Below, one piece after another: positions 1,622-24,709 of a DNA stretch of 64,000 nt. The notes beneath the pieces were generated by a model. It was given only the letters and a program-made list of their open reading frames with translations. It did not search any database and was not told the DNA's origin. Position 1 is the first letter of the stretch. Each line of letters opens with the position of its first letter. Location: assembly GCA_026397015.1 (NCBI GenBank), contig JAPLVR010000003.1, positions 192,001 through 256,000 of the forward strand. The letters are read 5' to 3'. The translations under genes and the position numbers were made by a program. The DNA comes from Candidatus Iainarchaeum sp. GTDB taxonomy: Archaea > Iainarchaeota > Iainarchaeia > Iainarchaeales > JAAZKV01.

Positions 1622-1648
1622 TTATACAATTCTTTGTTTGATTTAGTC

Positions 1649-2883: not shown

Positions 2884-3246
2884 ATGACAAAGACTCGTAT
2901 AAGAACGCTTTCCAAAGAGGTAATAATTAACATAAACAAGAAATTCTCTGATGGAATAATGCGAAATGAGGGGGAAATAGACCACGTAGTGTACAAAGTT
3001 GCCGGTACCAGAGGGATAGATAGAAAAGCCGCTACATTGCTAATGGACATTGCAAGAAAGCATGCTTTCACTGACGGAAATAAAAGAACCGCTTATGAAT
3101 CAATGCTTACATTACTTGAACTGAATGGAAAAAAACTTGAAGTTGGAGAAACATCGAGATTTAATGTTGTTGTTTGGGTAGTAAAACCGAAAACAAATTT
3201 AGAGGAAATAATTACGTGGATAGCAAACCACACAAGGGGTAACTAA
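2884..3246 (+). CDS. Fic/Doc-family toxin
   Basis: HAFTDGNKRTA Doc-type motif; ATG 2884 follows TTTAAAT box. Confidence 0.9.
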   Translation: MTKTRIRTLSKEVIININKKFSDGIMRNEGEIDHVVYKVAGTRGIDRKAATLLMDIARKHAFTDGNKRTAYESMLTLLELNGKKLEVGETSRFNVVVWVVKPKTNLEEIITWIANHTRGN

Positions 3247-3247
3247 A

Positions 3248-3376
3248 ATGAAAGTAATAAAAGTCAAAGGAAAAAGAGAACCAATAACAATGGCTGAATG
3301 GAGTGACGTTAAAGAAATGGTTGAAAGACACCTAAAAGAAAACAAAACATTCTACGCACAACTAGCTGAATTATAA
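3248..3376 (+). CDS. Putative 42-aa antitoxin of the Doc toxin (not in ORF track)
   Basis: MKVIKVKGKREPITMAEWSDVKEMVERHLKENKTFYAQLAEL; starts 1 nt after toxin stop with GGGGT RBS; amphipathic C-terminal helix resembles Doc antitoxin tails. Confidence 0.65.
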   Translation: MKVIKVKGKREPITMAEWSDVKEMVERHLKENKTFYAQLAEL

Positions 3377-3400
3377 TTGTGACAAGCAACAGTTTTGACC

Positions 3401-3438
3401 GTAATCTTGAGCGCCCCGTGTGCAACTCTAGGGGCATT
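3401..3438 (+). repeat. Inter-cassette hairpin site 6
   Basis: GTAATCTTGAGC-GCCCC-GTGTGCAACTCTA-GGGGC-ATT. Confidence 0.8.
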
Positions 3439-3499
3439 CCTTTTTTCTGGTTTAGCTGCAAACAAAACTAATTTATTGCTTAGCTTGTAAAATTAGGTA

Positions 3500-3910
3500 A
3501 TGAAAATAACCTTGTGCTCGAGCTACAGATTCTTTGACAAATTATACGCAATAAAAAAGGCGCTGGAAGAAAGGGGTTACGAAGTGTTTTTACCGAGCAT
3601 GCGTGATTACCATCACCTTGAAGAAACCGCTCTCGCAAAAATACAATACAACCTAATCAAAAACCATTTCAGAAAAGTTGACAAGTCTGATGCAATCTAT
3701 GTGGCGAATTATGACAAGGACGGCGTAAAAGGTTACATAGGAGGAAACTCCTTCCTTGAGATGGGAAAGGCTTTTGACAAAGGAATTCCAATATTCCTCA
3801 TGAATGAGATCCCAACCCAATCGCCATACAGAGAAGAATTAATCGCGCTCATGCCGATAGTAATCGGCGAAGACTGGGATCTAATGAATAAATTGCTTAA
3901 AAAAAGGTGA
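3500..3910 (+). CDS. Nucleoside 2-deoxyribosyltransferase-like protein
   Basis: KITLCSS, KSDAIYVAN, GYIGGNSFLEMGKA, IPIFL pattern of NDT-like Rossmann fold. Confidence 0.65.
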   Translation: MKITLCSSYRFFDKLYAIKKALEERGYEVFLPSMRDYHHLEETALAKIQYNLIKNHFRKVDKSDAIYVANYDKDGVKGYIGGNSFLEMGKAFDKGIPIFLMNEIPTQSPYREELIALMPIVIGEDWDLMNKLLKKR

Positions 3911-3916
3911 CTAAAA

Positions 3917-4159
3917 ATGAAATTAAAAACAAAAGCTGAAAAGAAAAAGGTAAAATCGGAAAAATATGTCCGGGTATGCCCGATGTGCAGGAGCGCAAAA
4001 CTTTCAATAAACAACTCAAACCCCTTCTTTGTGAGTGCCAATATTTGGGAATACAAGTGCGGGAACTGCGGCTACAAAAATGCCCAGAGCCTATTCCCTG
4101 AAATAAAAATTCCCGAGAAACAAACAGGCGGAAAAAAGAAAAAAACGACAAAAAAATGA
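3917..4159 (+). CDS. Small Zn-ribbon protein
   Basis: CPMC...CGNCGY; GGTGA RBS. Confidence 0.7.
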   Translation: MKLKTKAEKKKVKSEKYVRVCPMCRSAKLSINNSNPFFVSANIWEYKCGNCGYKNAQSLFPEIKIPEKQTGGKKKKTTKK

Positions 4160-4223
4160 GCCTAAATGCCCCCCACAGAGAATGTTTATATACAACCAAG
4201 AAGCTAATTTGTTAAGTGGCATT

Positions 4224-4841
4224 ATGAGAAGAATCAACAGTCTGTTTGGAAGAAGAAAAAAACCGCTCAGCGAATCCGTAAAGAAAGCGCGTGAAAAAAG
4301 GTTGTTGGAGAGGAACACTCCGCCTACAAAAAAGGGTGGGAAAAAGCCGTTGAGGGAAAGTTTCTACCGCGGCTTTACTCCGAATAATTTGAGTGCAAAA
4401 GAGCAAAAGGAAACGGAAAGGGCAATCAAGGTGCTGGAAAGGGCAAGAATGAAGGGGATGAAAAATACCGTTATAAAAACCACTATTGGCACGCATGTTG
4501 GCGAGTTATACGGTTTTTGGAACGCATTACTTTCGGCCACAACAAACACATCAATAATGCGCGGGGCCGGAATTTACTTTAAAGCCACAATTGCGGGCGG
4601 CGCAATCGGATACGGAATCGGGCACGCTAAAAATGTGCCCCTTGTAAGAAGGGCGACAAAACTTGTCGGCAGGGCGCTCTACAAGGAACAGAAAAAGAAC
4701 AGGGATTTGCGAGAGTTCTTGGAAAAATACAGGTACGTTTACATCAATATGACCGGGGACATTGTCGGAACCAGGCTTCCAAAAATAATATTCGGAAGGA
4801 TGCGGCTGAGAACAAGTAAAATAATCGCCGGAAAATATTAG
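4224..4841 (+). CDS. Basic hypothetical protein with Arg/Lys-rich N-terminus and central hydrophobic Gly-rich segment
   Basis: ORF downstream of TTTATATA (4185-4192); start set at ATG 4224. Confidence 0.65.
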   Translation: MRRINSLFGRRKKPLSESVKKAREKRLLERNTPPTKKGGKKPLRESFYRGFTPNNLSAKEQKETERAIKVLERARMKGMKNTVIKTTIGTHVGELYGFWNALLSATTNTSIMRGAGIYFKATIAGGAIGYGIGHAKNVPLVRRATKLVGRALYKEQKKNRDLREFLEKYRYVYINMTGDIVGTRLPKIIFGRMRLRTSKIIAGKY

Positions 4842-4902
4842 GGGCGTTTAATCCCTGCAGCCACCCGCAACAATTTTTAATTGAATCCACAGAAACTTCA
4901 TT

Positions 4903-6021
4903 ATGATTCCGAAAAACATTTCCGAATTAGTTACCTTCTCGCCGAACAGGTTTGAGCCGATACATGACTGGTTCTACTATAAGGAAGGGTACGCAAAAAA
5001 ATTGGTTGAGTGGCTGGTAAAGGAATACAACCTGGAAGGCCCCATTTTTGACCCGTTCTGTGGAAGCGGGACAACAGTTTTGGCCGCAAAACAGATGGGC
5101 ATTGAAAGCATCGGGTGCGATGTTTCGCCGCTCGCGGTTCTTGCATCAAAAGTAAAAACAAGGAATTATGAAGTTGAAACGCTGAAAAAAAAGCTGGGCG
5201 AATTCAGGGAAATGAAAGTTCCTCCCGAGCAGTTGACGCCGCGCGACGAAAGGCTGAGAAAAATAATCAGCAGGGGAAACTGGGAAGAAATGCATTTTTT
5301 GAAAAAAAAGATTGAGGAAATTGGAGACGAAAAAGCAAGAGATTTTTTTTATTTGGCAATGGTTGATTCTTTCGGTGCAGTGGCGCAGGTGGTAAAAGTC
5401 GGGGGGTCGCTGAGAAGGGCGAAAAAAAATGTTCCATCAATGAAAAAGTTTTTCGAGAGGAAATGCGAGAGGATGATAAGGGATTTGGAAAGGGGGAAGA
5501 AGGGGGTGGAGCCGGAAGTAATCGAAGCCGATGCAAGGGTTTTCAACCTCGAGGAAAATAGTATTGGTTCCATAATTACTTCACCGCCGTACTTGAACAA
5601 AATCGAATACACTACCGTTTACAAGCTCGAGCTTATTTTGTTTTTCAAGGTGCAGGAAACGCAATTGAGGGCTTTCATCGGGGATGAGCCTCAAAACATC
5701 AGGGGAACAAAAATAAAAATCAAAAATTTTCAAAAGTTTCCGCCGATTGCGCAGGCATACTTTGAAGATATGGAAAAAGTGATGGTGAACTGCTTCCGCT
5801 GTTTAAAGCCGAAAGGGAAAATGGTTATTGTTGTGGCTGGAGGATGCCTGCCAGATAGAATAATTCAGAGCGACGAAATTTTGTGCGATTTGGGGCAGGC
5901 GATTGGATTCAAAATAATCGATATTATTGCCGCAAGAGAAATTTTTTGCCACGCAAACAGGTCGATAAAAATCGGGAAAGTAAGGGAAAGCGTTATTGTT
6001 TTGGAGAAGCCGGAAGTTTGA
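4903..6021 (+). CDS. Orphan DNA amino-methyltransferase (N4-C/N6-A family)
   Basis: IHDWFYYKEGY, SAM-binding DPFCGSGTT preceding catalytic TSPPY. Confidence 0.88.
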   Translation: MIPKNISELVTFSPNRFEPIHDWFYYKEGYAKKLVEWLVKEYNLEGPIFDPFCGSGTTVLAAKQMGIESIGCDVSPLAVLASKVKTRNYEVETLKKKLGEFREMKVPPEQLTPRDERLRKIISRGNWEEMHFLKKKIEEIGDEKARDFFYLAMVDSFGAVAQVVKVGGSLRRAKKNVPSMKKFFERKCERMIRDLERGKKGVEPEVIEADARVFNLEENSIGSIITSPPYLNKIEYTTVYKLELILFFKVQETQLRAFIGDEPQNIRGTKIKIKNFQKFPPIAQAYFEDMEKVMVNCFRCLKPKGKMVIVVAGGCLPDRIIQSDEILCDLGQAIGFKIIDIIAAREIFCHANRSIKIGKVRESVIVLEKPEV

Positions 6022-6090
6022 AAAGAAAGGTATAAATACCATGAAGAACGCTATACTTCGGGAAGGATTTCCGATTTTTGAGGTGGTTTT

Positions 6091-8340
6091 TTGAAAAGGT
6101 TTCTTGGAATAGTTTTATTGGTCGCAGTAATTATTTTATTTTCAGGGTGCATCCAACCGCCAGTATGCGGAAACGAAAGATGTGAAATAGGAGAGAACCA
6201 AGACAACTGTTCAGCGGATTGCTCGTCACAATCGCCGCCTTCGGTGCAGATCTTTGAGCCGGAAATCAACGGTCTTGTTGTGACCCAAAACGGCGTTGCA
6301 CAGCCTAACTGTGGAAGCTTTGACGAAACATACTGCGCAAACTATTCCGCTGGCCCAGACCAAAATGGAACAATATTCAACGGGCCCATTGCATTTGAAT
6401 GGGGCGACGGAAGTGTTTCATGTTCCTGGTTCCCTGCGGAACATCAATATGCACAAGCCGGTGAGTATACAATAAGCGTAAGTGCAAAAAATACCTGTAC
6501 CGAAACGATCGGCGGCGCAACCAGAATTGTGCGAATAAGTTCAGGTTCTTGCGGAAATTCAATATGCGAAGCAGAAGAAACGCCTCAAACATGTTCCGAT
6601 GATTGTAGCATAATTTCTCCGGGAGTTTACGAGCTAAATATCGGGGACAAAATATTTGTTGAAGGAGGCGGAAATTTTGCAGGCGAAATACTGTCAATAA
6701 CATTTATTGATGTGGTTCAGCCGGGAACGGGCCCAAACATGCCCTACCAAGGGAAATGGACACTAAAAAACAACTACACATTACTAAAAATTGTCCAAAA
6801 AGCGCCGGGCACTTACTTAAACGACGAATTCGGATCAAATTATTTTAACCGCAATCCGAAAATATACGTTGAAGAGGTTGCGTTTAATCTGCAAACCGAA
6901 AAATATTTCGCAAAAGTGAGGATAACAAGCGGAATAGAAATAAGGACTGACCAAGTGTTCCCGTACGATCCGGCGCAAACAACAAATCCAGAATGGACTG
7001 GGCACGCGAACACTGTTTTGGAAGGAAATAAAGTCAAACTTCTCTCAATTGAAATAATGAATAATTGGTCATATGACCAACCAACAAACGAGAGTTCGAC
7101 ACAGAAAATCGTCCTCGCAAAAAACCAATCAATAAAACTCCCTTTGGATTATGGGCACATAACTTACGAAGGCCTTCAAGGGGAAAACCCTGAAGTAACC
7201 GAAACAATTGGCGGAAACACATTAAAAATAACTGATACTTTTGGAATCCAAAGAGAAGTTCCATTAGTAATCCAGCTGGGATTCGGTCTTAACGAGATAA
7301 TGATTTCAGGAACCCCATTTGTTGTTTATCTCGCTAAGCTTGAAAACACTGAAAAGGATGTTGCCAGGTACTGGCCTTACTCTAGAACTGCCGCGGCAAT
7401 TCCCGACCCATGGAAAAACCCTCCGGCAGGTTACAATGACATCTCATATTCAAACAAAAGCGTAACAAAAACAACCCTAAGCTTCTGGGTAAATACAACC
7501 AGCATGTCGCCAAAATATGCCCTAGGGGTTGACAAAACAACCGGGCAGGCATGGCTTTTACTGTCCAGCCAGTCATTCCGCGTTAAATCTGCAAGCAGAA
7601 GCGGCATTCTTGAGGTCGGAAGCACCTGCATCCCATCAGCCACGCCGGACCAAAGGCCGTATTACCTGCCGGATTTAACCACGTTAAATGTTCTTACCGG
7701 GGCCGGCTATTCAATAATGCCGTCTGATGGGGATTCTTACGAATTCACTTCAAAAATGACACTCAAGGATTATGACAATCCGCAGGGAGTAGATTTTTAT
7801 CTCGGGACGTCGGATGATTTGCTCGTAAACAGCACAAATAATAAAGCAAGGTGCAGCACGGCGGACAATGAGGCGGAATATATTCATTGGAACCTAAATG
7901 AATACACAACCGCGGCATCCACAAAGCTGCTGCAGGGATACACTACTTACGGCACAAAGGTAACGGTCAGCGAGGGAATTGGAAAAGCATACGTTCCGCT
8001 TTACACAAAGGTCATGGCGCACACAACTGTAAACATTTCCAACCCAATTGAATTATTCCTGAGAAACAAAATACAGGATTCAAATCAATTCATTTGGGAT
8101 ATAAGCTCCAATGATGTGTACAGCGAAAAAATAATGCTTGAGGCAACCGCGAGAAATCAGACAATCGCAAACGGCTTTTATCCGGGCGAGGTTGTTTTGT
8201 CAATAGGAAAAAATGGAATAGAATACTACGTCACATTCAACCAGCCTGCCGATATCGGCACCGAAATAAATTTCATGGGCAAAAATTATAGGATTGCGGA
8301 AATCGGATTAGGGCGCGTATTCCTTGAAGAAGTGCAATAA
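6091..8340 (+). CDS. Surface lipoprotein with CGNxxCE..C..DC repeats, PKD-like domain and S-layer-like region
   Basis: Signal peptide with FSGC lipobox; WGDG..HQY...GEYTISV PKD motif; shares a domain with the 62668 ORF. Confidence 0.75.
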   Translation: MKRFLGIVLLVAVIILFSGCIQPPVCGNERCEIGENQDNCSADCSSQSPPSVQIFEPEINGLVVTQNGVAQPNCGSFDETYCANYSAGPDQNGTIFNGPIAFEWGDGSVSCSWFPAEHQYAQAGEYTISVSAKNTCTETIGGATRIVRISSGSCGNSICEAEETPQTCSDDCSIISPGVYELNIGDKIFVEGGGNFAGEILSITFIDVVQPGTGPNMPYQGKWTLKNNYTLLKIVQKAPGTYLNDEFGSNYFNRNPKIYVEEVAFNLQTEKYFAKVRITSGIEIRTDQVFPYDPAQTTNPEWTGHANTVLEGNKVKLLSIEIMNNWSYDQPTNESSTQKIVLAKNQSIKLPLDYGHITYEGLQGENPEVTETIGGNTLKITDTFGIQREVPLVIQLGFGLNEIMISGTPFVVYLAKLENTEKDVARYWPYSRTAAAIPDPWKNPPAGYNDISYSNKSVTKTTLSFWVNTTSMSPKYALGVDKTTGQAWLLLSSQSFRVKSASRSGILEVGSTCIPSATPDQRPYYLPDLTTLNVLTGAGYSIMPSDGDSYEFTSKMTLKDYDNPQGVDFYLGTSDDLLVNSTNNKARCSTADNEAEYIHWNLNEYTTAASTKLLQGYTTYGTKVTVSEGIGKAYVPLYTKVMAHTTVNISNPIELFLRNKIQDSNQFIWDISSNDVYSEKIMLEATARNQTIANGFYPGEVVLSIGKNGIEYYVTFNQPADIGTEINFMGKNYRIAEIGLGRVFLEEVQ

Positions 8341-8370
8341 ATAATACGATTCTCAAAGGGCGATTAGTTT

Positions 8371-8400
8371 TTTTCGCCAGCCTTTTTGTAAAAAAGGCTG
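8371..8400 (+). repeat. REP-like palindrome
   Basis: TTTTCGC-CAGCCTTTTT-GTA-AAAAAGGCTG. Confidence 0.85.
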
Positions 8401-8556
8401 GTTTGAAACCTTAAGTTTTGGAAAACAAGAGGTTTGCTTTTTCCATAATGCATCCTTATTAGCGGGGGCGCAACTAACATTAGTTGCCTTCTATTAAATG
8501 CACCAAAAAAGAGATGCACTGCAACTGAAGGCACAACTCCAACACGGTGAAAAAAA

Positions 8557-8913
8557 TTGAGTCTTATAAAGCTGACTTTCGGCGGAAGGAATCCAAGCGC
8601 GGCTGACGCAATAGGCAAAGGAAAATTGAAGGTTGTTAAAACCGACAAATTTTACGGAACAGAAGCCGTTTGCGTAATAGGAACACTCGTTGAAGGGGCT
8701 CTTTCTGTAAACATGTGCATTCCGGAAAAGAATGCAAAAATACAGAGCCTGGAATCGAACTATGGCGATGATTACTGCGTAAAAGAAGGTGCAAAGGTAA
8801 CACTCATGGTTTTGGGGATAAATAAGAGCGACTTTAACACGGGGGATGACATACAGTTCCAAAAGCTTGCGGTGATTGCCGGCAAACCGAAGGGAAGATT
8901 GATAATCGCATAA
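8557..8913 (+). CDS. Stand-alone EF-Tu domain II-like beta-barrel protein
   Basis: VIGTLVEG..AKIQSLE..KEGAKVTL..FNTGDDI pattern; TTG start after GGTGA RBS. Confidence 0.55.
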   Translation: MSLIKLTFGGRNPSAADAIGKGKLKVVKTDKFYGTEAVCVIGTLVEGALSVNMCIPEKNAKIQSLESNYGDDYCVKEGAKVTLMVLGINKSDFNTGDDIQFQKLAVIAGKPKGRLIIA

Positions 8914-8994
8914 ATTTTACGGATGGTGAGCAGCCCGGCCTGCCCCCGGCGGCAGGCGGGTTTAAATCCTTAATTGGACTAATTTTATTTCAGT

Positions 8995-9555
8995 ATGGCA
9001 AATCTTTTCAATCCACAAAATATCCAAGATAAACTGAAAAATCCAATGAAAAAATTGTTCTCATCGCAGGCGTCGGTTGAAACAAAACAAATAATGCTTT
9101 ATGCAACCGGTCTAATCATTATCCCGCTTTTATCCAACAATCAATTGATAACGGGCGCATTTGTAAACACAATATTGATACTTGCCGCGCTGAACTATTC
9201 CCTCAAAAAAACTTTTTTCCTCTCATTCATCCCGAGCACGACAATTTTTTTAACAGGGTTTTTCTTCGGCGGCGTAACAGCCGCAATCGCGTTGATGCTC
9301 CCTTTCATTTGGGCGGGAAACTTTTTGTTGATGCTTGCAACAAAAAAACTTTTCATTGAAAAGAAAAAAAATTATTTCATTTCTGCTACCGGGGGGGCAC
9401 TGGCAAAAACCGCTTTGCTTTTTTGTTCTGCAACAATGCTCGCTTCATTCTCGCTTATCCCAATCGTATTCGTTTCGACGTTTGGAATAATGCAGCTGGC
9501 AACAGCCGAAAGCGGCGCAATGATTGCTTTTATTTTAAAAAAAGCAAAAAGATAA
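8995..9555 (+). CDS. Membrane protein, ECF S-component-like
   Basis: About 5-6 TM segments; NQLITGAFVN, PFIWAGN and QLATA motifs. Confidence 0.6.
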   Translation: MANLFNPQNIQDKLKNPMKKLFSSQASVETKQIMLYATGLIIIPLLSNNQLITGAFVNTILILAALNYSLKKTFFLSFIPSTTIFLTGFFFGGVTAAIALMLPFIWAGNFLLMLATKKLFIEKKKNYFISATGGALAKTALLFCSATMLASFSLIPIVFVSTFGIMQLATAESGAMIAFILKKAKR

Positions 9556-12391: not shown

Positions 12392-12504
12392 TTTTGGGCG
12401 AAAGGCCTATCTATTAACAGTGTATATTTTAACAATAAAAAAAAGAAAAAGCAAAACCTTTAAATACAACCTCGATACACAAAATAATATTGGTTGCGAT
12501 TTCG

Positions 12505-15500
12505 ATGCGAAGACAAGTTTTGTTCTTATTTATGATTCTTCTTTCGGCGACTGTTTTTGCGGACTACTGTGTTAACAGGACTGGACCCGGTTATCTTGTG
12601 GGTTGCGGTGTGCTAGGAGTACAAAGCGGGTTTTCAACCTGCATTTATAACACCGACGCCGCCATGACTAAAATTAAGACTGTATTGAATTATACTGGAC
12701 CGAACTGCGGAGTAAGAGTTACTTGTTACAATATTGGCAGTGGCGCTAGTGCTGGTCTGCAAGTTTGTGCGGGATATGATACTGGTTGTTATGCGCCAGG
12801 CGCAGGGTCGTGCGTTTGCAGCCCGAATAGCCAATTTGCCCCTGAAACATGTTCAAATGGTTTTACCTATAAAACTTGTAACGGTAATGGTGACGGTTAT
12901 TCACAGGCGAACTGCCAGCGGATTGGCGGTAACTGCAGCGGTGGAGACATATTTTATACATCCAGGCTTAACACATCCTGCCCCCCAATAAACGGGCAAT
13001 GTGTTCAAGACGTTTATGGCGCCCTAAATGGCCTGGGATACTGGGAACAATCCTCAGGGGCAAGGGCTTACTGCGATACTGTGAATTATCATGGCCTTCA
13101 GGTGGCACAGGCATGCGTTAAAACAGATGGTTCATGTATCCCAAAGGTCTGTACAGCGAATGCGTATGAGACGAGGGTGTGCACCAACAACAAGGGATTC
13201 CAATGGAGACAATGCAACGGATCTGGAACAGGATACAACGCCGACTGGTCAGCCTGCATAACCATCCCGGGAGGAAACTGCACCACAACAACCGGCGACC
13301 AATTCTACACACTAAGAGCAAACACCACCTGCACCCAATCAGGACTAGCAGACGGATCATCATGCAGCCAAAACTACACTAACCAATTAAACTCACTAGG
13401 ATACAGCGGACCATACACAGGAACAAGAGTGTATTGTGAAAGCGGGTCATATGCAGGTTTTACAGCGGGAGAGGTGTGCGTAAAAACAGATGCAGCCTGC
13501 AACCCACCAATCTGCACAGCAAACGCATACGAAGCAAAAGTATGCGCCAACAACAAAGGATTCCAATACAGAAAATGCAACGCAAACGGAACAGGATACG
13601 AACCAGACTGGCAACCATGCACAGCACTGCCTGGAGGGGATTGTAAAACAATAACCGGGGATTTATTTTATACATCAAGACTGGAAGGCAAAAACTGCTC
13701 CCAATACGGGTTCGCAGGACAGACTGGATACTCGGCATGCGTACAAAGCATTAACAGAAGTGTTTTGGACGCAGTAGGATATACGGGACCATACATCGGA
13801 GCAAGAGCATACTGCGACGATGAAACATACCAAGGCGCAACTGCAGCAGAAGCATGCGTAAAAACAGATTCTTCTTGCGGAGCACCGTGCACAGTGGGGC
13901 AAATAGAAGCACAAACCTGTGACAATGACAATGGATACAAGTACAGAACATGCAACTCAACAGGAACGGCATGGAACGACTGGACCACATGCGCACCGCT
14001 ACCAGGAACAAACTGCGGAGCAGGAACAACCAAAATATTCTACAAAGCATTCCTCAACAAAACATGTGCGGAAGTCGCCCAGGGAAGAACAAATGTCTGT
14101 ATACAAGACGTATTCCAAATAGCGTGGAATAATGGGTACAGGGGCCTGGCAACGGGGGCAAAGGTATATTGTGATGATTACAGGACATCAAGCTTATACG
14201 GGGCAGGATTCTGCGTAAAGGTGGCTACGGAATGCGACCAGTCAGTCTGCACACCCGGAAAATACGAGGCAAGGGAATGCATAAACAAGAGGGCGGATAC
14301 CAAAATGCCAAGCGGATATCAATACAGGCAATGCAACACAACAGGGCAAGCATGGGGCGACTGGTCAACATGCGCACCAATACCGGGAATAAACTGCGGA
14401 ACCGGAATCACAAAAATATTCTACTACCCGAAACTCAACGTTACGTGTGCAGGGGTCGGGATACCGACAAGCGGACTATGCATACAAACAGTACTCCAAC
14501 AAGCAAAAGCACTCGGATACACCGGACCAGAAACAGGCGCAAGAGCATATTGTGATAATTACAGAACCGAAGATATATTCGGTGCGGGAGCATGCGTAAG
14601 AACGGACACAGGCTGCAATACCGGCTGCATATGCACCGACCAATACGACCCTGTTTGCGGAACAGACGGAAAAACTTATCCTAATGAATGCGCCGCGAGA
14701 TGCGCGAAAATAGCGGTCGCGTATGAAGGCGAATGCAAAGAAAACTGCGCAAAGGAAGGGGAAGGAATCTGCAACACATGCACACCGGGAAGCGGACCAA
14801 CGGAATGCTGCACCGGGCTGACAAAAATAACGCCCGCAAGTAAGCTAAATGATGATTGCACTTTGAAAAATATAGTCGGCGGACAATCATCAGTCTGCAC
14901 CCATTGTGGAGACGACATTTGCGGAACCGGAGAAAACAAATGCAACTGTCCACAGGATTGCAATCCCATTAAATGCGAAACAAGTAAAGATTGTTTAAGG
15001 GGTTGCATAGGGCCGAAAGCGACTTACGGTTCCTGCACGAACGGGCAATGTGTATATACTAGATGTGAAACGGATGGCAGTGGCATTGACAGATGTGCTG
15101 CAGACACCGCACCGCCAACGTGCGACAAAAGATGCGACGCGGACTGCGAAACCAACGCGGACTGCATGGTTACTTGCGCCCAAAATTTATGCGCGATTGG
15201 CGAAACCAATTGTGCAGAATGCCCTGAATACACCTGCAACAGAGAATCCTGCGAGTGTGAGCCGGTAGTAGTACCTGTACCGCGGTTTAATTTGACAGTG
15301 CATACTGGCTGGAATATTTTCTCGATACCCGGAGCATTGAGCCTACTGAGCAATAATTGCGATTCAAGCAGATTTAGAATTTACGAATACACCCCCTCTT
15401 CAATACCTTGGTTTGTTCCTGTAAGCAACGTTGAAATAGGAAAGGCATATTTACTATATTACCCTCTGGCAGATTGTTCGGTGAGAGGAACCATAACAGA

Positions 15501-15780
15501 GGCAATCAGTTCAAGCGAATTGCCGGCTGTCAGAACAGGCTGGAATTTCATACCTGTTCTTGTTGATATGATTGGAATGAAGGTGAGCGATCTTGTACCT
15601 GATTGTGGAGCCGTTAGGGCGTACTTCTACGATGCCGAAGCAGTTGGATTCGTTGACATAACTAATACTATTTTAACTTCAAGTGATTTAGGCCAAGGAT
15701 TCGGATTGTTTGCAATGAATGGCTGCACGGTTACAACACCATCGGAACCTGGCTTCCCTGCATTACCGGAGGCTGACTAA
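12505..15780 (+). CDS. Secreted Cys-rich repeat protein with Kazal domain
   Basis: Signal peptide; about five ~120-aa repeats (Y.G...GARAYC...CVKTD..C); CTDQYDPVCGTDGKTYPNEC Kazal; C-terminal GWN..S.P repeats. Confidence 0.85.
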   Translation: MRRQVLFLFMILLSATVFADYCVNRTGPGYLVGCGVLGVQSGFSTCIYNTDAAMTKIKTVLNYTGPNCGVRVTCYNIGSGASAGLQVCAGYDTGCYAPGAGSCVCSPNSQFAPETCSNGFTYKTCNGNGDGYSQANCQRIGGNCSGGDIFYTSRLNTSCPPINGQCVQDVYGALNGLGYWEQSSGARAYCDTVNYHGLQVAQACVKTDGSCIPKVCTANAYETRVCTNNKGFQWRQCNGSGTGYNADWSACITIPGGNCTTTTGDQFYTLRANTTCTQSGLADGSSCSQNYTNQLNSLGYSGPYTGTRVYCESGSYAGFTAGEVCVKTDAACNPPICTANAYEAKVCANNKGFQYRKCNANGTGYEPDWQPCTALPGGDCKTITGDLFYTSRLEGKNCSQYGFAGQTGYSACVQSINRSVLDAVGYTGPYIGARAYCDDETYQGATAAEACVKTDSSCGAPCTVGQIEAQTCDNDNGYKYRTCNSTGTAWNDWTTCAPLPGTNCGAGTTKIFYKAFLNKTCAEVAQGRTNVCIQDVFQIAWNNGYRGLATGAKVYCDDYRTSSLYGAGFCVKVATECDQSVCTPGKYEARECINKRADTKMPSGYQYRQCNTTGQAWGDWSTCAPIPGINCGTGITKIFYYPKLNVTCAGVGIPTSGLCIQTVLQQAKALGYTGPETGARAYCDNYRTEDIFGAGACVRTDTGCNTGCICTDQYDPVCGTDGKTYPNECAARCAKIAVAYEGECKENCAKEGEGICNTCTPGSGPTECCTGLTKITPASKLNDDCTLKNIVGGQSSVCTHCGDDICGTGENKCNCPQDCNPIKCETSKDCLRGCIGPKATYGSCTNGQCVYTRCETDGSGIDRCAADTAPPTCDKRCDADCETNADCMVTCAQNLCAIGETNCAECPEYTCNRESCECEPVVVPVPRFNLTVHTGWNIFSIPGALSLLSNNCDSSRFRIYEYTPSSIPWFVPVSNVEIGKAYLLYYPLADCSVRGTITEAISSSELPAVRTGWNFIPVLVDMIGMKVSDLVPDCGAVRAYFYDAEAVGFVDITNTILTSSDLGQGFGLFAMNGCTVTTPSEPGFPALPEAD

Positions 15781-16100: not shown

Positions 16101-17615
16101 TCATTTTTTTGCCAGCGCCTTGTTGATTCCTTTTATCAGCGCCTGCGCACTAGCCATAACGATGTCCTCGTTAATGGCTTCCGCCTCATAAATTTTTCCG
16201 CTGCCGTTTGAAACTTTTACAACAACATCTGCCAACGCATCCGTGCCGCCTGTAATCGCCTTCAAATAGTAGTCCTTCAGGAAAATCTGCTGGGGGATGA
16301 CTGATTTTATCGCATTGCTTACCGCATCAACCGGACCCAGCCCGTAACCAACCGCCTCAACACTCTTGCCGTCAATCACGAGTTTTATTTTCGCCTTCGG
16401 CCTTGTTTTGTTTCCGGTTTCAATAAACAGTTCGTCAAGAACTACACGCTGCTCTTCTTTCTTCAGTTCCTTCGTAACATCACCCGCAATCGCCACGATA
16501 TCCTCTTCAAGGACAATTTTCTGCTTGTCGGCAAGGTCCTTTATTTTTTTGGTCACTTGGGCAAGCTGCCCCTCGCTTAAAATGAAGCCCATTTCCTCAA
16601 GGACTTTTTTCGCCGCGTGCTTTCCGCTGTGCTTACCCAAAACAAGTTTTGTTTTTTTGCCGATAATTTTTGGATTAATTATTTCGTAAGTTTCTGAGTT
16701 GGCAAGGATGCCGTGCTGATGGATGCCCGATTCGTGGGAGAAGGCGTTTTCGCCGACTATGGCCTTGTTGCGCTGAACGGAAATTCCAGAAAGGCTGCTT
16801 ACCATCTGCGAAGTTGCATAAATTTCTTTCAAATTGATATTTGTTTCTGCTTTGAAAAAATTTTTGCGCGCATAAAGGTTCATTGCGACCTCTTCAAGCG
16901 CGGCATTGCCTGCGCGCTCCCCCAAACCGTTAATTGTGCACTCTACCTGCGAAGCGCCGTTCGCTACGCCGGCAAGGCTGTTTGCAACCGCAAGACCCAA
17001 ATCGTTGTGGCAATGGGTGCTTATTGCAATTCCTTCAATATTCGGCACTTCTTCCCTAATTTTTTTCACCAAGACGCCGTACTCTGCAGGCTGGGAATAG
17101 CCGACCGTATCTGCAACATTTATGGTGGAGGCGCCGGCTTCAATCGTTTTCTCGATAACCCCGAGCAAAAAAGGCACATCGGAACGGGTTGCGTCCATCG
17201 GAGAAAATTCTATGTCGTTACAGAGGTCGGAAGCGAATTTTACCGCCTCAACGGACATTTTTAGGGCATCCGCACGCGAAATTTTGAACTGCTCTTTCAA
17301 GTGGATATCCGAAGTGGACATAAATGTGTGAATGCGGGGCTTTTTCGCGCTTTGAAGCGCTTTCCACGCAACTTTTATGTCATTTTCGCGGGCGCGGGCA
17401 AGGGCGGCAATCTTGGACTTCTTAATTATCGAAGAAATTTCTGAAACAGCTTTGAAGTCTTCGTCGCTCGAAACAGGGAAGCCTGCTTCAATAATATCCA
17501 CTCCGAGTTTTTCCAGTTGCTTCGCTATGATAATTTTTTCGCGATGATTTATGGTTGCGCCGGGGCTCTGCTCGCCATCCCTTAATGTCGTGTCAAAAAT
17601 TTTTATTTTCCTCAC
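16101..17615 (-). CDS. leuA: 2-isopropylmalate synthase (LeuA/CimA family) with C-terminal regulatory domain
   Basis: [42 protein letters not shown]. Confidence 0.9.
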
Positions 17616-17709
17616 TTTATTTCCCCCACAAATTTTCCCCTATTATTTTTTCCGCATTATTTTCCCTTATTATTTCCCTCATAACCATCACACATATTTA
17701 ATATAAAAA

Positions 17710-17746
17710 CAATGAAACAGCGCCTCCCAAAAAGTAGTGGAAAGCG
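17710..17746 (-). terminator. Terminator/attenuator-like hairpin after the Leu leader peptide
   Basis: Minus strand CGCTTTCCA-CTACTTTT-TGGGAGGCG (9 bp with G-U pairs) followed by CTGTTTCATTGTTTTT. Confidence 0.55.
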
Positions 17747-17747
17747 G

Positions 17748-17849
17748 TTAACCCAGAAGCAAGAGCAAGTAAGCGAGAACTGTTCCGAGAACGAAGAGGC
17801 CTACAGCAGATGAAAAATCGCCTAAAAAACTTATTCCTGTTTGCCTCAT
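17748..17849 (-). CDS. Putative leu leader peptide, 33 aa (not in ORF track)
   Basis: MRQTGISFLGDFSSAVGLFVLGTVLAYLLLLLG*; TTG CTC TTG CTT CTG run; lies between a TTTTAAAA box (~17884-17891) and leuA. Confidence 0.7.
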   Translation of the reverse strand: MRQTGISFLGDFSSAVGLFVLGTVLAYLLLLLG

Positions 17850-18078
17850 AAAAATCTCTCTTTCCCTATTATGCGCTTCCCCCTTTTAAAAGGTTTCTTG
17901 TTTGGATACTGAAACAAAAAATACATCCAAAAAGGGTTTTCTTGCGTAAAAAAAGGCGGAAAAACTGAAAAAATTACAAACCAAAGAAATGCCAAAAATT
18001 GCATGCCAAAAAAAGAGAACTGAAAAAACCGTGCGCCAAAGAAATACAAATAAAAGGGAGTTAGGGCATAATTAATCA

Positions 18079-18660
18079 ATGAGGAAAGCCCCCAAAAAAA
18101 CAAATCCTGTTCAAAAAAAACCTTCGCAGAAAAAGCCCCGGGTTTTATCTTATGAAGAGGCCTGGGGCGGTTTTATGCCCGAAGTGGAAGAGGCACTCAT
18201 CAAGGAAAGATTGGCAAAAATGGCCCGAATTGAAAAGAGATTTGAAAGGGCTATGCCCTCCAAGGAAAGAAGCGTTTACTGGATTTATGCAAAAAGAAAA
18301 AAAGGAAATTATCCCGCGCATACCGAACGCGGCGGAAAGTGGCTGGTTTTCGTTGACGAACCTTACATTGATGCTGTTTGGAAAAAAATAAAAAAGGCGA
18401 CGGCGGACGGGCGCCTCGGTGGCTACACAAAAGTTTCAACGGCAAAACCCCTTTCGGAGGAAATGGCGAAGCGTACCGGCATGGCGGACAAGCATGTGAG
18501 AGTGGTATGTGTTTACACATATGACTATCAGGACAAAGTGGATTCCATGCGAATAAGGGAAGAACTAAGGAAGATGGGGATAATCAAAAAAATACCTTAC
18601 AAGCCCGATTATGCTGCCGGAAAATACGGCGTCGAAACTGTTGTAGAATACGAGGCTTGA
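18079..18660 (+). CDS. DUF1917/Bles03-like (eIF4E-like fold) protein with basic N-terminus
   Basis: GGKWLVF, W..I..AT..G.LG..KVST, VCVYTYD, YKPD. Confidence 0.8.
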   Translation: MRKAPKKTNPVQKKPSQKKPRVLSYEEAWGGFMPEVEEALIKERLAKMARIEKRFERAMPSKERSVYWIYAKRKKGNYPAHTERGGKWLVFVDEPYIDAVWKKIKKATADGRLGGYTKVSTAKPLSEEMAKRTGMADKHVRVVCVYTYDYQDKVDSMRIREELRKMGIIKKIPYKPDYAAGKYGVETVVEYEA

Positions 18661-20185: not shown

Positions 20186-23100
20186 ATGATCAATTTGGAA
20201 TTTTTCAAAAAAAATCTGATCTGTTTCGCAGTTCTATTTTTCGCTTCGATTATTCCGGGCGTTTGCGGTGCCGCAGTGCAAATTGACATAAACGGGCAGT
20301 ATTATCTCGGCGGAGCGGTGACAATATCCGGAACAGTTGCTCCGGCGGCTGCAAATGATTTGAATATTTATCTTACCAACGCGTCAAGCGGCGCGGTATT
20401 TGACAGCAACACTGTGGCTGCCGATGCAAACGGGGCGTATTCCATAACATACAATTATTTGAGCGCTGGCGACTATAACGGGCTGGTAACAGATGCAAAT
20501 TCAAGCGCGACCAATAGATTTTACCTAAAAATAACCAATTATGCAAGCATAGACATCAATTTTGTTGGAAGTATGCCGCCTTTAAATATCGGCCAGGCAT
20601 TGGTTGCGAATTTTACTTTGAGGGATTATAATAATGCAGTGGTAACAAGTGATTACAACATCGCATTAAAACTTGTTGATTCGGATGGAACCGTTGTCAA
20701 GGATCAAAACAACTATGTTCCAAAATCAGGCGGGGCAAACAGAACTGATGATTATAACTTCGGCGCTCTTCCCACTCCAGGAACATATACAATAATAGTG
20801 GACAACGGAGTAACTGGGTTTAATGTTCCAGTGATAGCGTACAACTTATTTGTTAATTCGTTCAATTCCAGCACCGGCGACCCCCAAAAGATATTTGCCG
20901 CGGGACAGGACGCGAATGTAAAGGTGTTCATGAGCAACACAAGCGGAACCCCGATAACAAGCGGAACTATTTCAGGAACAATACAAGCGCCAAGTAGCGT
21001 TACACAATCCCCACTAACTTTCACCCCATACGGCGGCTATTTCATGGCGAATACGGGCGCATTAAGCACGCAAGGAGAATATACAATAAGAGTTAGTGCG
21101 AGCGCACTCGGTTACAGCCAAAACCAGGAATTAAAACTTAAAATCCAAAGCTACTCGATGTTATTGCAGCCGAAAAAGAATGAAAGCGCCGGAAAGAAAG
21201 AGAGGATGAAGGGAGCATACAGCACTTCTTCGCAGGCGATTCTTGAACTGAGCATAACCGACTTGAACACAAACATGGCTCTCGCAGGATTGGATTTGAA
21301 TAGCGCCTGCAATAAAAACAAATTATCGCTTACTGTTTACAAGGCGGGTTCGACTGTTGGAACAAGCGTTACTTTCGATGTGAATAATGTGCCGGATAAG
21401 ACATGCGATTTGAATTTTGTTACGCCTTCATCAACAGGAGAATATCGTTACAAACTGGTCGGCACGGACATGAATGTGGCAAATACTGTGCAGGATTTGG
21501 CAACATCAACCGGATTGAAAGTGCAGAATCAGATGGTGTTCTTCGACGCGGTTGATCCATCTGCATATGCGCAGGATTCGAGCAATTCGTGGAAATTCAC
21601 TTTCTACAAAGATGAAAACATCGGGTTTGTTGCAAATGTAATTGATTTGAATGTGAGTGATGATGCGGATGTTTCTGCAGTAAGTAAGGCAACAATAATG
21701 CAGAACGGCCAGCGCATAACAATAACCAACACTGTTGATAAAAATTATCTTGATTATAACGCGGAGTCGCATGTGCTGTTAATGCTCGGAAGCGCACTCA
21801 CTGATAATAATGTTTCCGCAGGGTTCGTTCCGATAGAATTCACGGTAGATGTAAATTCAAATAATGACGCGATGGATGCGAATAGCATTACTGCATTCGG
21901 CGCGTTCAAATACAAAATAATGAATATTTCTTCGATGCCGGCGGATGAAAACGGCGGCTCAAAATCAACAATGTTCGGACCGCCGGTATTCCACTCAGAT
22001 ACCGAAGGAGTTTACCTTCAGGTTTCGGTTACGAATGCGGGCGGAACTGCGATAAAATATGCCAATGTTGAGCTTTACTCTCTTAGAAATGTAGATGACT
22101 GGAATGAACTGAGCGTTGCCCCGATAAACGCGATTTCGGATAACAATAATCTTATTACGAGCAGCGCCGGAACGGCACATCTTCACTTGGGCACACTCTC
22201 TTCAGGGATTTACTTCGGGCAGGTGAAAGTAACAAACGGAAGCACGATTGATTATGGGGATTTCTTTTTGATGGTGAAAAGTTACATTGTTAATGCACAG
22301 CCATTGACAGTGGAAAACGGCCAGTGCATGTTCATGAATTCAATCGGACAGAACAGCGATTTCAACATGGTGATAATGGCGATGAACCCTGCGCTGGGAA
22401 TGCCTGTTAATGATTATGTTCCGGATGAAAACGGCACGAAAGTGTTCCTCATGAGCATGGGGGAAGAATTCAAGGAACCGACAATATACGATGTTACTTT
22501 GAGCAGCCCGTTTGATTTCAATTGTACGGGAATGATGGGTCCTCCGGGCGAAGTGCAGACATTCAAAGCAATGACAGTTCACCCGAACGGCGATTCTAAC
22601 TGGCAGGCGGGAAATTACAGGGTGCTTGTGAAAGGAAGTTCTGCTGAGCTTGGAGCGGAAGCCGGAGACGGCTTTTTCAGGGTGCAACCATTTAAATTCA
22701 GTTTAATGCCGTTGGCAATGACGGGCATGGGCGGCGGAGACCAAAAGATGCTTAATGCGACACCGGGTTCGGCTTTTGATTTCAATGTCATATCGGACAA
22801 GAGCATTACTCTGAGAGCAATTCTTGTTGATGAAAAAACACAGCAGGATGTTAACAGCAATATTAATTTTGTTAACAACAGCAACACAGTCAATGCAAAT
22901 GAACTCACAACCGTTTCGGTTCTTATCCCGTCAAATATCCCTTTATCTGAATACCCGCTGATAGTTTTCGGTGATGACACTTCGGGCAACCAGGCGGAGC
23001 AGGATTTATTCCTAAGAATGAGCCTTTTCAATTTGGTTGTGCCAAGCGGTATTGGAAATCAAAATCTGCAGTATCAGCAAAGCAATACGGGGGCATATGA

Positions 23101-24709
23101 CACAAACATTTTGGATGATGCTACAAATGGAAACCTGCGCCATTCAAGCGGCCCTGGCGACAGCGGGCATTATTGTGATGGAAATGTTACTGTCGGCGAC
23201 ATCAACTATAACAGATGGATTATGGCCGGCACGGATTGGGCCAGAAATGATTTGAATCATTTAATGCTTGTTAACACAATCGATCAAAATGTTTGGATTG
23301 ATTATGACAATGACTGCAATTTTGTTCTGGATGATGCGGACAGCAACAGACATGTTGGGGATACAAACATAGGGTCAATGACTGATGGAAACGCCATGCT
23401 CGTAACGGACATCACCTCAATGGCATTAACATACATGAAAAAGCCGTTTGATTTTAATAATTCAAGCAGGATGCAGGGAACTTTTATCGGGCAATATCCT
23501 GTTGATGAAAATATAGGCGTGCCGATAATAATTAAGAATTTGGACGGCACCACTACTGCGGATATTAACGTAACAATAAACAGGGCGATGCTACTGCCTT
23601 CCTTTGGAATGGGAATGCCACAGGAAACAACCGGGTGGACGGCGTGGCAGGGCACAACCGACGCCGACGGCTTTGCAAGGGCAATCTTGAATGTGTCAAG
23701 ACCCGGAACGTACATGCTTGAAATAAAAGCGACCAATACTGCGGGAACGTCACAAATATTCAAGCCGTGGGAAGGAATGGTAGTTGAAGCGAAGAAGTAC
23801 AAAACTGAAATGTTCCTGCAGAACCAAATAGGAGATATTACAATTGATTTCAACAATGTGCTGGCTGGGAGCGGCGTATTTATTGAAGATGACGAAAGCA
23901 GCGGTCCCGGAGATAATGGCGACGGTTTAGACCAGACATGGTACGATGCAAATTACGGGCTGTTTGATGAAAGCGCAAGAGACTTTGATTTGGATAAGGA
24001 TGGCGCCAAAGACAAAAACTTTTATTTCATAAAACTGAACGATGCGTTCCACACGGCCAATTCTGGAATGGACGCAAATATTCTGGTTGACGATGACACT
24101 AATTTTTGCAACATACTGTACAGAGGGCCAGACAACAATAGAGATGATTGCGACCAAAATGTTTTGGGCGAAGTCGGATTGAATGAAGGCTGGTTTGACA
24201 ACACAAGCGGGCTCTTCCTGTGCCCGTACAGCAACGCCCAAGGTTCAATGCAAAACACTTCATGCGGAAACAATGAAGCGGTTTATGCGATTTCAGAGAA
24301 CGACACAAATGTCAATGATAATGATGCGATAATAATCAACAGAACCACCTGGAGGGCGCTTGATAATACAGGAAACAATTGGGGGTTATGGATGATAAAG
24401 GACGGCATAAACAATGCCGCAGGTTCAAGCACAAACACATGGACTATATTCAAAGATCTTCAGGGAGTAAAACTTAATTCTTCAGGCACGATGAGCGCAA
24501 AGCTTTTCAGGACAAGCGCCAGGCCACAGATGAACCAGCAAAATACGATGATTCCTATGCCAGGAACGTATCCGGGAACGATAACCGGCGGCATAGGAAA
24601 AATTAATTACGGCAATCTGCCGGATTCAAATTATTCAATGGCGGTCGATGTAAACATCAATAATGATTTGCAAACGCAATACGAAAACTTTGAAATAAGG
24701 TCGTCATAA
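20186..24709 (+). CDS. Giant secreted beta-rich surface protein with pervasive D-x-N motifs
   Basis: Signal peptide; Ig-like G.Y.I.V strands; Asn/Asp/Thr-rich. Confidence 0.85.
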   Translation: MINLEFFKKNLICFAVLFFASIIPGVCGAAVQIDINGQYYLGGAVTISGTVAPAAANDLNIYLTNASSGAVFDSNTVAADANGAYSITYNYLSAGDYNGLVTDANSSATNRFYLKITNYASIDINFVGSMPPLNIGQALVANFTLRDYNNAVVTSDYNIALKLVDSDGTVVKDQNNYVPKSGGANRTDDYNFGALPTPGTYTIIVDNGVTGFNVPVIAYNLFVNSFNSSTGDPQKIFAAGQDANVKVFMSNTSGTPITSGTISGTIQAPSSVTQSPLTFTPYGGYFMANTGALSTQGEYTIRVSASALGYSQNQELKLKIQSYSMLLQPKKNESAGKKERMKGAYSTSSQAILELSITDLNTNMALAGLDLNSACNKNKLSLTVYKAGSTVGTSVTFDVNNVPDKTCDLNFVTPSSTGEYRYKLVGTDMNVANTVQDLATSTGLKVQNQMVFFDAVDPSAYAQDSSNSWKFTFYKDENIGFVANVIDLNVSDDADVSAVSKATIMQNGQRITITNTVDKNYLDYNAESHVLLMLGSALTDNNVSAGFVPIEFTVDVNSNNDAMDANSITAFGAFKYKIMNISSMPADENGGSKSTMFGPPVFHSDTEGVYLQVSVTNAGGTAIKYANVELYSLRNVDDWNELSVAPINAISDNNNLITSSAGTAHLHLGTLSSGIYFGQVKVTNGSTIDYGDFFLMVKSYIVNAQPLTVENGQCMFMNSIGQNSDFNMVIMAMNPALGMPVNDYVPDENGTKVFLMSMGEEFKEPTIYDVTLSSPFDFNCTGMMGPPGEVQTFKAMTVHPNGDSNWQAGNYRVLVKGSSAELGAEAGDGFFRVQPFKFSLMPLAMTGMGGGDQKMLNATPGSAFDFNVISDKSITLRAILVDEKTQQDVNSNINFVNNSNTVNANELTTVSVLIPSNIPLSEYPLIVFGDDTSGNQAEQDLFLRMSLFNLVVPSGIGNQNLQYQQSNTGAYDTNILDDATNGNLRHSSGPGDSGHYCDGNVTVGDINYNRWIMAGTDWARNDLNHLMLVNTIDQNVWIDYDNDCNFVLDDADSNRHVGDTNIGSMTDGNAMLVTDITSMALTYMKKPFDFNNSSRMQGTFIGQYPVDENIGVPIIIKNLDGTTTADINVTINRAMLLPSFGMGMPQETTGWTAWQGTTDADGFARAILNVSRPGTYMLEIKATNTAGTSQIFKPWEGMVVEAKKYKTEMFLQNQIGDITIDFNNVLAGSGVFIEDDESSGPGDNGDGLDQTWYDANYGLFDESARDFDLDKDGAKDKNFYFIKLNDAFHTANSGMDANILVDDDTNFCNILYRGPDNNRDDCDQNVLGEVGLNEGWFDNTSGLFLCPYSNAQGSMQNTSCGNNEAVYAISENDTNVNDNDAIIINRTTWRALDNTGNNWGLWMIKDGINNAAGSSTNTWTIFKDLQGVKLNSSGTMSAKLFRTSARPQMNQQNTMIPMPGTYPGTITGGIGKINYGNLPDSNYSMAVDVNINNDLQTQYENFEIRSS

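Follow-up and report, generated by a model that had tools for sequence, protein, structure and literature searches.

We analysed a 64,000-nt stretch of DNA from Candidatus Iainarchaeum sp. (hereafter the window, to which coordinates refer unless another locus is named) and we propose that its gene for 2-isopropylmalate synthase, leuA, is controlled by a short leader open reading frame (ORF) that ends in a leucine-codon run and is followed at once by a hairpin. The leader and leuA features all lie on the minus strand. Similar leaders precede leuA or ilvB in many relatives, and we think that together they may represent a family of ribosome-mediated, amino-acid-sensing attenuators that would be the first of its kind in Archaea, in which ORFs at the start of leaderless transcripts would read the charging of tRNA-Leu and tRNA-Val and control leu and ilv genes across the order (we put the probability of this reading at roughly 0.7). 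According to the accessible portion of PMC8448881, archaea had no known mechanism of attenuation or antitermination as of 2021. The word archaea is absent from a 2024 review of microbial upstream ORFs, and our literature search found no report of an archaeal leader-peptide attenuator, a report elsewhere being possible.

The first-pass annotation, which was made from the letters of the window alone, had described a TATA-like box, a 33-codon ORF with a terminal run of five Leu codons, a hairpin, a U-rich tract, and leuA 132 nt further on. All of these are present on the minus strand (Table 1). Nine of the 33 codons of the leader ORF encode leucine, five of them consecutively, and the final Leu codon of the run is the second codon before the stop. 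Across the whole 0.9-Mb genome, just 13 of 12,765 small ORFs (15–60 amino acids) have at least five Leu among their last eight residues. Of these 13, only the window leader is not embedded in a longer frame and also has an ATG start, a stable hairpin directly after its stop, and a long ORF on the same strand within 400 nt. The hairpin begins 1 nt after the leader stop, its helix has a predicted energy of −11.4 kcal/mol, and it is the top-ranked terminator-like site in a 20-kb scan. The local fold (positions 17770–17700) has an energy of −14.8 kcal/mol (z = −1.78) and 11 of 200 shuffled sequences fold equally well, so that, taken alone, this statistic is weak evidence for anything beyond chance. 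The leader region as a whole (301 nt) folds no better than its shuffles (z = +1.23); only the local hairpin stands out. The identity of the regulated gene is clear: the leuA product matches the Pfam families HMGL-like, HCS_D2, and LeuA_dimer, and it passes the NCBIfam equivalog cut-offs (677.7 versus 532 for NF002086, and 632.5 versus 598.7 for TIGR00973).

The comparison with relatives rules out chance. Of the 215 genomes from this phylum that our collection contains, 196 belong to the window's order. LeuA orthologues (E ≤ 1e-80) were found in 50 of these 196 genomes, and upstream sequence was available for 49 of them. A small ORF on the same strand with a run of Leu, or of Leu and Val, near its end is present at 48 of these 49 loci, which span 10 families (13 of the first 14 close-orthologue loci, 34 of 35 further loci, and G028, where the leader is at the head of the operon); because the loci are related, such counts overstate their independence. 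G049 has no leader upstream of leuA. The run ends one to three codons before the stop in 47 leaders (L058 from G175 is atypical, at six codons from the stop), and 44 of 47 have their final Leu or Val codon one or two codons ahead of the stop. Towards the N-terminus, the leaders diverge and are in many cases hydrophilic, so the conserved Leu run with divergent flanks that had been anticipated upstream of leuA orthologues is indeed what these loci have. A paralogue with about 30% identity, whose best match is citramalate synthase (CimA-like), has no such ORF at any of 14 loci, and the two bacterial LeuA loci that we found (48–51% identity) have no Leu-run ORF upstream. The LeuA proteins closest to the window's are from family f23 (66–72% identity), and the window leader resembles the f23 leaders in its start (M-R-Q-T) and in its end (LLG and the stop). 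A covariance model of the element in families f23 and f24 hit 19 of 151 genomes, once each and in every case directly upstream of leuA (17) or ilvB (2), and it had no hit in the window's genome.

The leader tails seem to have been selected for the codons themselves. Over the last 10 codons of 47 leaders, the reading frame encodes 61% Leu, 15% Val, 1.5% Ile, and no Phe (0%), versus 14% and 7% Leu in the other two frames of the same nucleotides. At least three types of Leu codon are used in 45 of the 47 tails, and all six are used across the set. Because the Leu enrichment is specific to the frame, the codon types are mixed, and Ile and Phe are nearly absent, we conclude that selection acts on in-frame codons and not on a pyrimidine-rich strand or on hydrophobicity in general. 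Free exchange of Leu for Ile, Val, or Phe, which the first-pass annotation had named as the outcome that would speak against a leucine sensor, is not seen; where at least two Val are present, they are tied to ilvB operons (see below). Also, CTA, which is the rarest Leu codon in the window's genome (4.5%), stands two codons ahead of the stop in 19 of 47 leaders.

These data also bear on the possibility that the small ORF encodes a functional hydrophobic peptide (membrane or toxin-like), with the hairpin and U tract as its terminator and the position of leuA being incidental. The window and f23 peptides do have about 17–22 consecutive hydrophobic residues, which is enough for one membrane helix. 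However, many other leaders have just 5–11 hydrophobic residues behind a polar N-terminus, and a generic hydrophobic segment does not account for the use of Leu and Val with so little Ile and no Phe, for a Val content that follows the presence of ilvB, or for covariance-model hits that are confined to one site per genome, in front of leuA or ilvB. The window peptide has no match in Pfam. We consider such a peptide to be extremely improbable.

The amino acids in the run follow the genes behind it. A search for the N-terminal domain of acetolactate synthase placed ilvB directly behind leuA in families f23, f24, f25, f29, and f6, and in the same cluster in G018 and G148. Leaders of leuA alone have Leu only, leaders of leuA-ilvB operons have Leu and Val, and stand-alone ilvB has its own leader with Val and Leu: at least two Val among the last ten residues were found in 22 of 25 leuA clusters with ilvB, in 0 of 22 leuA loci without ilvB, and in 8 of 8 stand-alone ilvB leaders. 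Three genomes (G017, G020, and G156) each have both a Leu-only leuA leader and a Val+Leu ilvB leader, and in genus g3, only two loci have Val in the leader, namely those whose cluster includes ilvB. These contrasts within a genome and within a genus are independent of the kinship of the loci. In the window, a lone leuA is preceded by a pure Leu run, whereas its nearest relatives in f23 have Leu+Val leaders before leuA-ilvB, which would fit a window leader that changed when ilvB was lost.

We examined the regions upstream of 18 genes that match the Pfam family TPP_enzyme_N and are not next to leuA. Eight have clear Val+Leu leaders and two have doubtful ones (L167 and L175); no leader was seen in the remaining eight regions, seven of which have a longer ORF upstream. 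Several of the genes without a leader have a different N-terminus and are possibly another TPP enzyme. Where leuB clusters lie apart from leuA (G024 and G012), there is no leader within about 700 nt upstream. In G028, leucyl-tRNA synthetase is under the same Leu leader as the pathway genes (Table 1).

The layout of the promoters is archaeal. In 46 leaders aligned on the first ATG, positions −30 to −26 are T-rich, positions −25 to −23 are A-rich, and the centres of TATA-like hexamers peak at −27 to −24. The usual spacing in archaea between this box and the start site is about 26 nt, so most leader transcripts probably begin at the AUG of the leader and are leaderless. The window is an exception, as its box ends 34 nt before the ATG and the implied 5′ untranslated region is about 11 nt. 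The window is on contig 5 of a six-contig, 0.9-Mb genome (G000) that is 85% complete; the genomes of its relatives are 0.5–1.5 Mb. The organism has been recovered from metagenomes alone, and its genome size hints that it may be DPANN-like. This genome has an archaeal small-subunit rRNA, and TBP is encoded on the same contig as the window, so the archaeal host and promoter that the first-pass annotation had presumed both hold up. The control of leuA by tRNA-Leu charging that it had proposed also gains from the comparison: the 48 of 49 leaders, the ilvB leaders, the codon composition, and the archaeal promoter all argue for it. Overall, the leader ORF very probably senses the charging of tRNA-Leu.

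The hairpin is conserved as well. It begins 0–7 nt after the leader stop in all 47 loci that were analysed (the median gap is 1 nt and the median energy is −11.4 kcal/mol). In alignment A1 (f23, f24, and their allies; 22 sequences), both partners vary in five of seven pairs and the share of paired cells is 92%, versus 39–52% if the 3′ partner is slid by 1–3 columns. In alignment A2 (genus g3; 12 sequences), both partners vary in seven of 11 pairs, the share of paired cells is 94%, and none of 500 shuffles reached the covariation score. Within 30 nt after the hairpin, there is a run of at least four T in 29 of 47 loci and of at least five T in 14 of 47. U runs that begin 0–2 nt after the hairpin have 4–8 U overall (U5–8 in L013, L055, and L056, and U4–5 in f23), while in g3 and g5, U6–9 lies 4–9 nt after the hairpin. 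In G028, the 3′ arm of the hairpin holds GGGUGG just before the AUG of the next ORF, which is 4 nt after the stem. Because U runs lie directly behind the hairpin in several separate families and because the G028 hairpin hides a ribosome-binding site, the folded hairpin is probably an OFF element. If so, then switching on under leucine shortage requires that the stalled ribosome prevent its folding. The leuA gene of the window begins 105 nt past the hairpin, behind its own GGGGG, and the hairpin does not mask its Shine-Dalgarno sequence there.

We propose that the element is a cis-acting, ribosome-mediated amino-acid sensor. From the archaeal promoter, a short transcript would begin with the frame for a disposable leader peptide that ends in Leu codons. 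When charged tRNA-Leu is plentiful, the ribosome would finish the leader and leave, and the hairpin would fold. The folded hairpin and the U-rich tract would then stop or limit the expression of leuA, with oligo-U termination as the likely OFF mode in most relatives and masking of the next gene's Shine-Dalgarno sequence in one (G028). When charged tRNA-Leu is scarce, the ribosome would be parked on the terminal Leu codons, with its leading edge over or against the foot of the hairpin; the hairpin would be weakened and leuA would be expressed. In some families, the last leader codons could assist by pairing with the 5′ arm and acting as an antiterminator for stalls further upstream. We infer from the sequences that the ribosome stalls, that the hairpin works as the OFF element, and that the stall is read out by occlusion. 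A leader sensor together with a hairpin that acts as an OFF element is, in our view, somewhat better than an even bet. That direct occlusion is the coupling step is a more tentative suggestion, for which we would give slightly less than even odds, though it would fit the placement of both the run and the hairpin against the stop and the use of CTA as the second codon before it.

Besides the kinship of the loci, several points weigh against this proposal. First, the geometry of occlusion is marginal. The leading edge of a bacterial ribosome in toeprints is about 12 nt from the first base of the A site. With such a footprint, a ribosome at the last Leu codon of the window would reach only about 2 nt into the 9-bp stem, one that stalls earlier in the run would fall short of it, and one on the stop codon would hide almost all of the 5′ arm, as in the trp leader. 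In the classical trp leader, that 5′ arm belongs to the antiterminator. Second, the window has no conserved antiterminator: the leader tail pairs no better with the 5′ arm than it does with shuffled arms (z = +1.06), in agreement with the first-pass annotation, to which no classical antiterminator was evident. (Across the relatives, this pairing is significant, with z < −1.5, in 13 of 47 loci.) The first-pass annotation had also suggested that GCUUCU in the Leu run could pair with the 3′ arm of the hairpin. This pairing is possible in the window (−9.3 kcal/mol versus −6.4 kcal/mol with shuffled arms, z = −1.58), but it is not general, as z is below −1.5 in only seven of 40 loci. Given 13 of 47 loci for the 5′ arm and seven of 40 for the 3′ arm, we rejected pairing of the leader tail with either arm as a general feature. 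Third, terminator-like hairpins are not enriched in this region of the genome (19 found versus 26.1 in shuffles), and oligo-U termination in archaea needs no hairpin, as the available text of PMC13681488 has it. Fourth, leader control is not general in this order, because we found no Trp leader before trpE in 30 loci. Thus, of the cognate leaders that had been envisaged for other amino-acid genes, the Val+Leu leaders of ilvB exist, and no Trp leader of trpE was found in these loci.

Some of these points raise the possibility that the same sensor works with the opposite, trp-like logic. In this case the hairpin would be the ON state, as an antiterminator or as a shield against the termination factor FttA (aCPSF1): a stall upstream in the run would free the 5′ arm, so that the hairpin folds, and a ribosome at the stop would cover this arm, so that the U-rich RNA stays single-stranded and open to termination. 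Indeed, the hairpin is 0–3 nt after the stop in most loci, and given the bacterial footprint, a terminating ribosome would cover 6–9 nt of the 5′ arm versus 0–6 nt for a stalled one. Also, having 5–9 sensing codons is sensible only if a stall anywhere in the run counts. The pairing of the leader end with the 5′ arm that is significant in 13 of 47 loci would be the equivalent of the pairing of trp regions 1 and 2, and the second conserved helix of f24 (see below) could act as regions 3 and 4. Finally, FttA receives its RNA directly from the exit channel and has a preference for U-rich RNA, according to the accessible portions of PMC13681488 and PMC11616081. However, U5–8 directly after the hairpin (L013, L055, and L056) or U4–5 (f23) gives the look of a terminator and not of an antiterminator, and as the hairpin of G028 hides the Shine-Dalgarno sequence of the next gene, its folding should switch that gene off. 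Furthermore, the window has no partner that could serve as region 4, and the helices of f24 share just 0–5 nt and could coexist as a pseudoknot. We consider the opposite logic to be unlikely.

A fifth point against the proposal that the folded hairpin turns leuA off is that a U run is absent from families f24, f6, f29, and f30, where a second conserved helix, formed by GACUUCUG with CAGAAGUC, crosses the hairpin instead. The crossing helices could form a pseudoknot, and this second helix of f24 is explained by neither of the two read-outs, that is, by neither logic for the hairpin. This second helix is missing from the window. In f23, f24, f6, f29, and f30, sequence is conserved at the block CAGAAGUC-N-UUAGA and at its partner GACUUCUG, which are flanked by A-rich and U-rich loops (columns 45–53 and 77–92 of alignment A1; examples are L047, L053, L057, and L068, and L169 upstream of ilvB). 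In genus g3, the hairpin has two invariant U-G pairs (12 of 12 sequences each) beside a symmetric 2×2 purine internal loop, with GA or AA on each strand (columns 34–38 and 52–56 of alignment A2; loci L009–L014 and L062–L067). This conservation beyond pairing might mark a binding site.

If the conserved RNA were itself the sensor, by binding a protein, tRNA, or metabolite, then the Leu codons could be a by-product of a pyrimidine-rich strand. The blocks that are conserved beyond pairing, in f23, f24, and related families and in g3, are what such a sensor would lead us to expect, and a protein-binding reading was proposed for the actinobacterial LEU element (Seliverstov et al., in the accessible portion of PMC1262725). 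However, the conserved blocks differ by family and are absent from the window, and what is universal is the codon run at the end of the ORF, with its frame-specific enrichment and its use of all six Leu codons. Nor does any Rfam family match: a cmscan of positions 17300–18300 with E-values of up to 10 gave three unrelated weak hits and no leader family, and 14 related loci had no hit at the gathering score. An RNA sensor of this kind is therefore very improbable.

Sixth, it is not clear what this genome gains from regulating a lone leuA. Because the next long ORF downstream of leuA is on the opposite strand and convergent, leuA stands alone, and the profiles Iso_dh, Aconitase, and TPP_enzyme_N found no match for leuB, leuC, or ilvB in G000 (which, again, is 85% complete). 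This genome appears to lack leuBCD. The element could be a relic here, inherited or transferred along with leuA from a lineage with leuA-ilvB and no longer serving leucine synthesis. Such a history would be consistent with the missing profile matches, with the lack of this leuA orthologue in a genome of the same genus (G001), and with the closest LeuA proteins being in another family (f23). Also, six further genomes (G005, G006, G014, G015, G019, and G020, which are 85–94% complete) have a leader-bearing leuA and no match for leuB or leuC. Against a relic, leuA is intact and scores above the equivalog cut-offs, and the leader, hairpin, and promoter box are all intact. The Leu-only run, as in other leuA-only loci and in contrast to Leu+Val in the nearest relatives, suggests adaptation after the loss of ilvB, and the incompleteness of the genome leaves room for missed genes. 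We consider a relic to be quite unlikely.

A related observation is that many of the f1 orthologues are short forms of LeuA (about 377 amino acids) without the LeuA_dimer feedback domain. Leader control of forms that lack the feedback domain would make sense.

The proposed leaders can be compared to several known systems. As in leuL and the trp, his, thr, and ilv attenuators, a short ORF whose codon run specifies the amino acid made by the pathway precedes a biosynthetic gene and is followed by a hairpin and U-rich RNA. The leuL leader carries rare CUA codons, and similarly, a rare Leu codon (CTA) is at a key position in many of these leaders. They differ from leuL in having an archaeal TATA promoter with transcripts that are probably leaderless for the most part, in having the run at the very end of the ORF with the hairpin abutting the stop, and, in the window, in having no conserved four-region pair of terminator and antiterminator (and no match to Rfam, including its Leu leader models). 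Also, the host polymerase is one without established hairpin-dependent termination. The enterobacterial ilvBN leader (ivbL in E. coli) mixes Val and Leu codons (multivalent attenuation), as do the leaders before ilvB or leuA-ilvB operons here. Besides the differences from leuL, which apply to ivbL as well, one leader often serves a fused leuA-ilvB operon in these archaea. In ermC, a stalled leader ribosome melts the 5′ arm and so switches on the downstream gene, which is the coupling step that we propose. In contrast to our proposal, the ermC stall is caused by a drug and the nascent peptide instead of by tRNA charging, and its read-out is purely translational.

The actinobacterial LEU element also has a Leu-run ORF before leuA and a pseudoknot-like fold, reminiscent of the two crossing helices in f24, f6, f29, and f30 but not of the window, which lacks the second helix. 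In the LEU element, the base stem is formed by the Leu run and the Shine-Dalgarno box of leuA, and its authors doubted a leader-peptide mechanism (both as given in the accessible portion of PMC1262725). We rejected a pairing of this type for the archaeal loci, as the mean energy was −9.6 kcal/mol for cognate pairs versus −9.3 kcal/mol for non-cognate pairs and −9.1 kcal/mol for shuffled tails (47 loci). Finally, the polycysteine small ORFs of mycobacteria, as described in the available sections of Canestrari et al. (10.1101/834739), are leaderless sensory ORFs with a run of codons for one amino acid, and G028 matches their layout with a translational read-out exactly. In the window and in most relatives, unlike in that layout, the regulated gene is 77–260 nt further on and its ribosome-binding site is outside of the hairpin, the U tracts point to termination rather than to translation, and the host is archaeal.

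The archaeal leaders would then share one sensor design, a terminal codon run with a hairpin abutting the stop, and differ in their read-out, which could be oligo-U behind a hairpin, a mask over a Shine-Dalgarno sequence, or a pseudoknot-like fold. If this is true, then amino-acid sensing by ribosome stalling is not confined to bacteria, the design was re-wired for leaderless transcripts, and a translating ribosome can steer the archaeal polymerase or the mRNA. Coupling of translation to transcription or to mRNA folding would serve gene control in archaea, possibly via oligo-U or FttA-dependent termination. The element offers a sequence-defined handle of about 250 nt for testing both transcription-translation coupling and oligo-U or FttA-dependent termination in archaea. 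It also raises the question of what role a regulated, solitary LeuA has in genomes that seem to be without the rest of the leucine pathway.

Table 1. Coordinates of the features discussed. Positions are those of the window, or of the named locus for the last six lines.
Feature	Position	Strand	Description
TATA-like box TTTTAAAA	17884..17891	−	Read from the sequence
Leader ORF	17748..17849	−	33 codons plus stop; ATG at 17849; peptide MRQTGISFLGDFSSAVGLFVLGTVLAYLLLLLG, then stop
Leu run	17754..17768	−	TTG CTC TTG CTT CTG, four codon types; followed by GGT and TAA
Hairpin S1	17721..17746	−	9 bp (5 G-C); 8-nt loop ending in U5; G-rich, Shine-Dalgarno-like 3′ arm GGGAGGCG
U-rich tract	17701..17720	−	T5 at 17709–17705; candidate oligo-U termination signal
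Purine-rich spacer	17632..17679	−	3–4 degenerate tandem units of 13–14 nt (Tandem Repeats Finder)
leuA	16101..17615	−	2-isopropylmalate synthase, 504 amino acids; GTG start at 17615 behind GGGGG; 132 nt after leader stop
85-aa ORF	17846..18103		Taken as spurious
Bles03 ORF	18079..18660	+	193 amino acids; Pfam Bles03 (PF08939, E = 3e-19)
Large ORF	12490..15780	+	1096 amino acids
Large ORF	20186..24709	+	1507 amino acids
tRNA-Trp(CCA), L109	582..655		Upstream of trpE
tRNA-Trp(CCA), L110	3110..3184		Upstream of trpE
tRNA-Trp(CCA), L112	589..662		Upstream of trpE
tRNA-Trp(CCA), L118	3138..3211		Upstream of trpE
tRNA-Trp(CCA), L126	542..617		Upstream of trpE
Operon, L070 (G028:C11)	395..9280	−	Leu leader, 121-aa ORF (no Pfam match), ilvE, leuA, leuB, leuC, leuD, leuS

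An apparent leader with the motif W-G-x-S-I-T-W before trpE was rejected, as it is the translation of a tRNA-Trp gene. A tRNA-Trp(CCA) gene is directly upstream of trpE and on the same strand in five of eight f23 and f24 loci that were checked (Table 1), and its six-frame translation mimics a Trp-rich leader peptide.

Between the U-rich tract and leuA, the units of the purine-rich spacer resemble the ribosome-binding region of leuA (GGGAAAAUAAU-like), and they could be standby sites for ribosomes. Similar purine-rich spacers are present in the related loci L050, L040, and L043.

An 85-aa ORF runs across the T-rich promoter region of the leader; it has no Pfam match and we take it to be spurious. 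The divergent neighbour of the leader promoter encodes a member of the Bles03 family, which is named after a mammalian protein. Two large ORFs elsewhere in the window have a secreted or surface-like look, and the 1096-aa one is exceptionally rich in Cys and contains repeated modules as well as an N-terminal hydrophobic segment.

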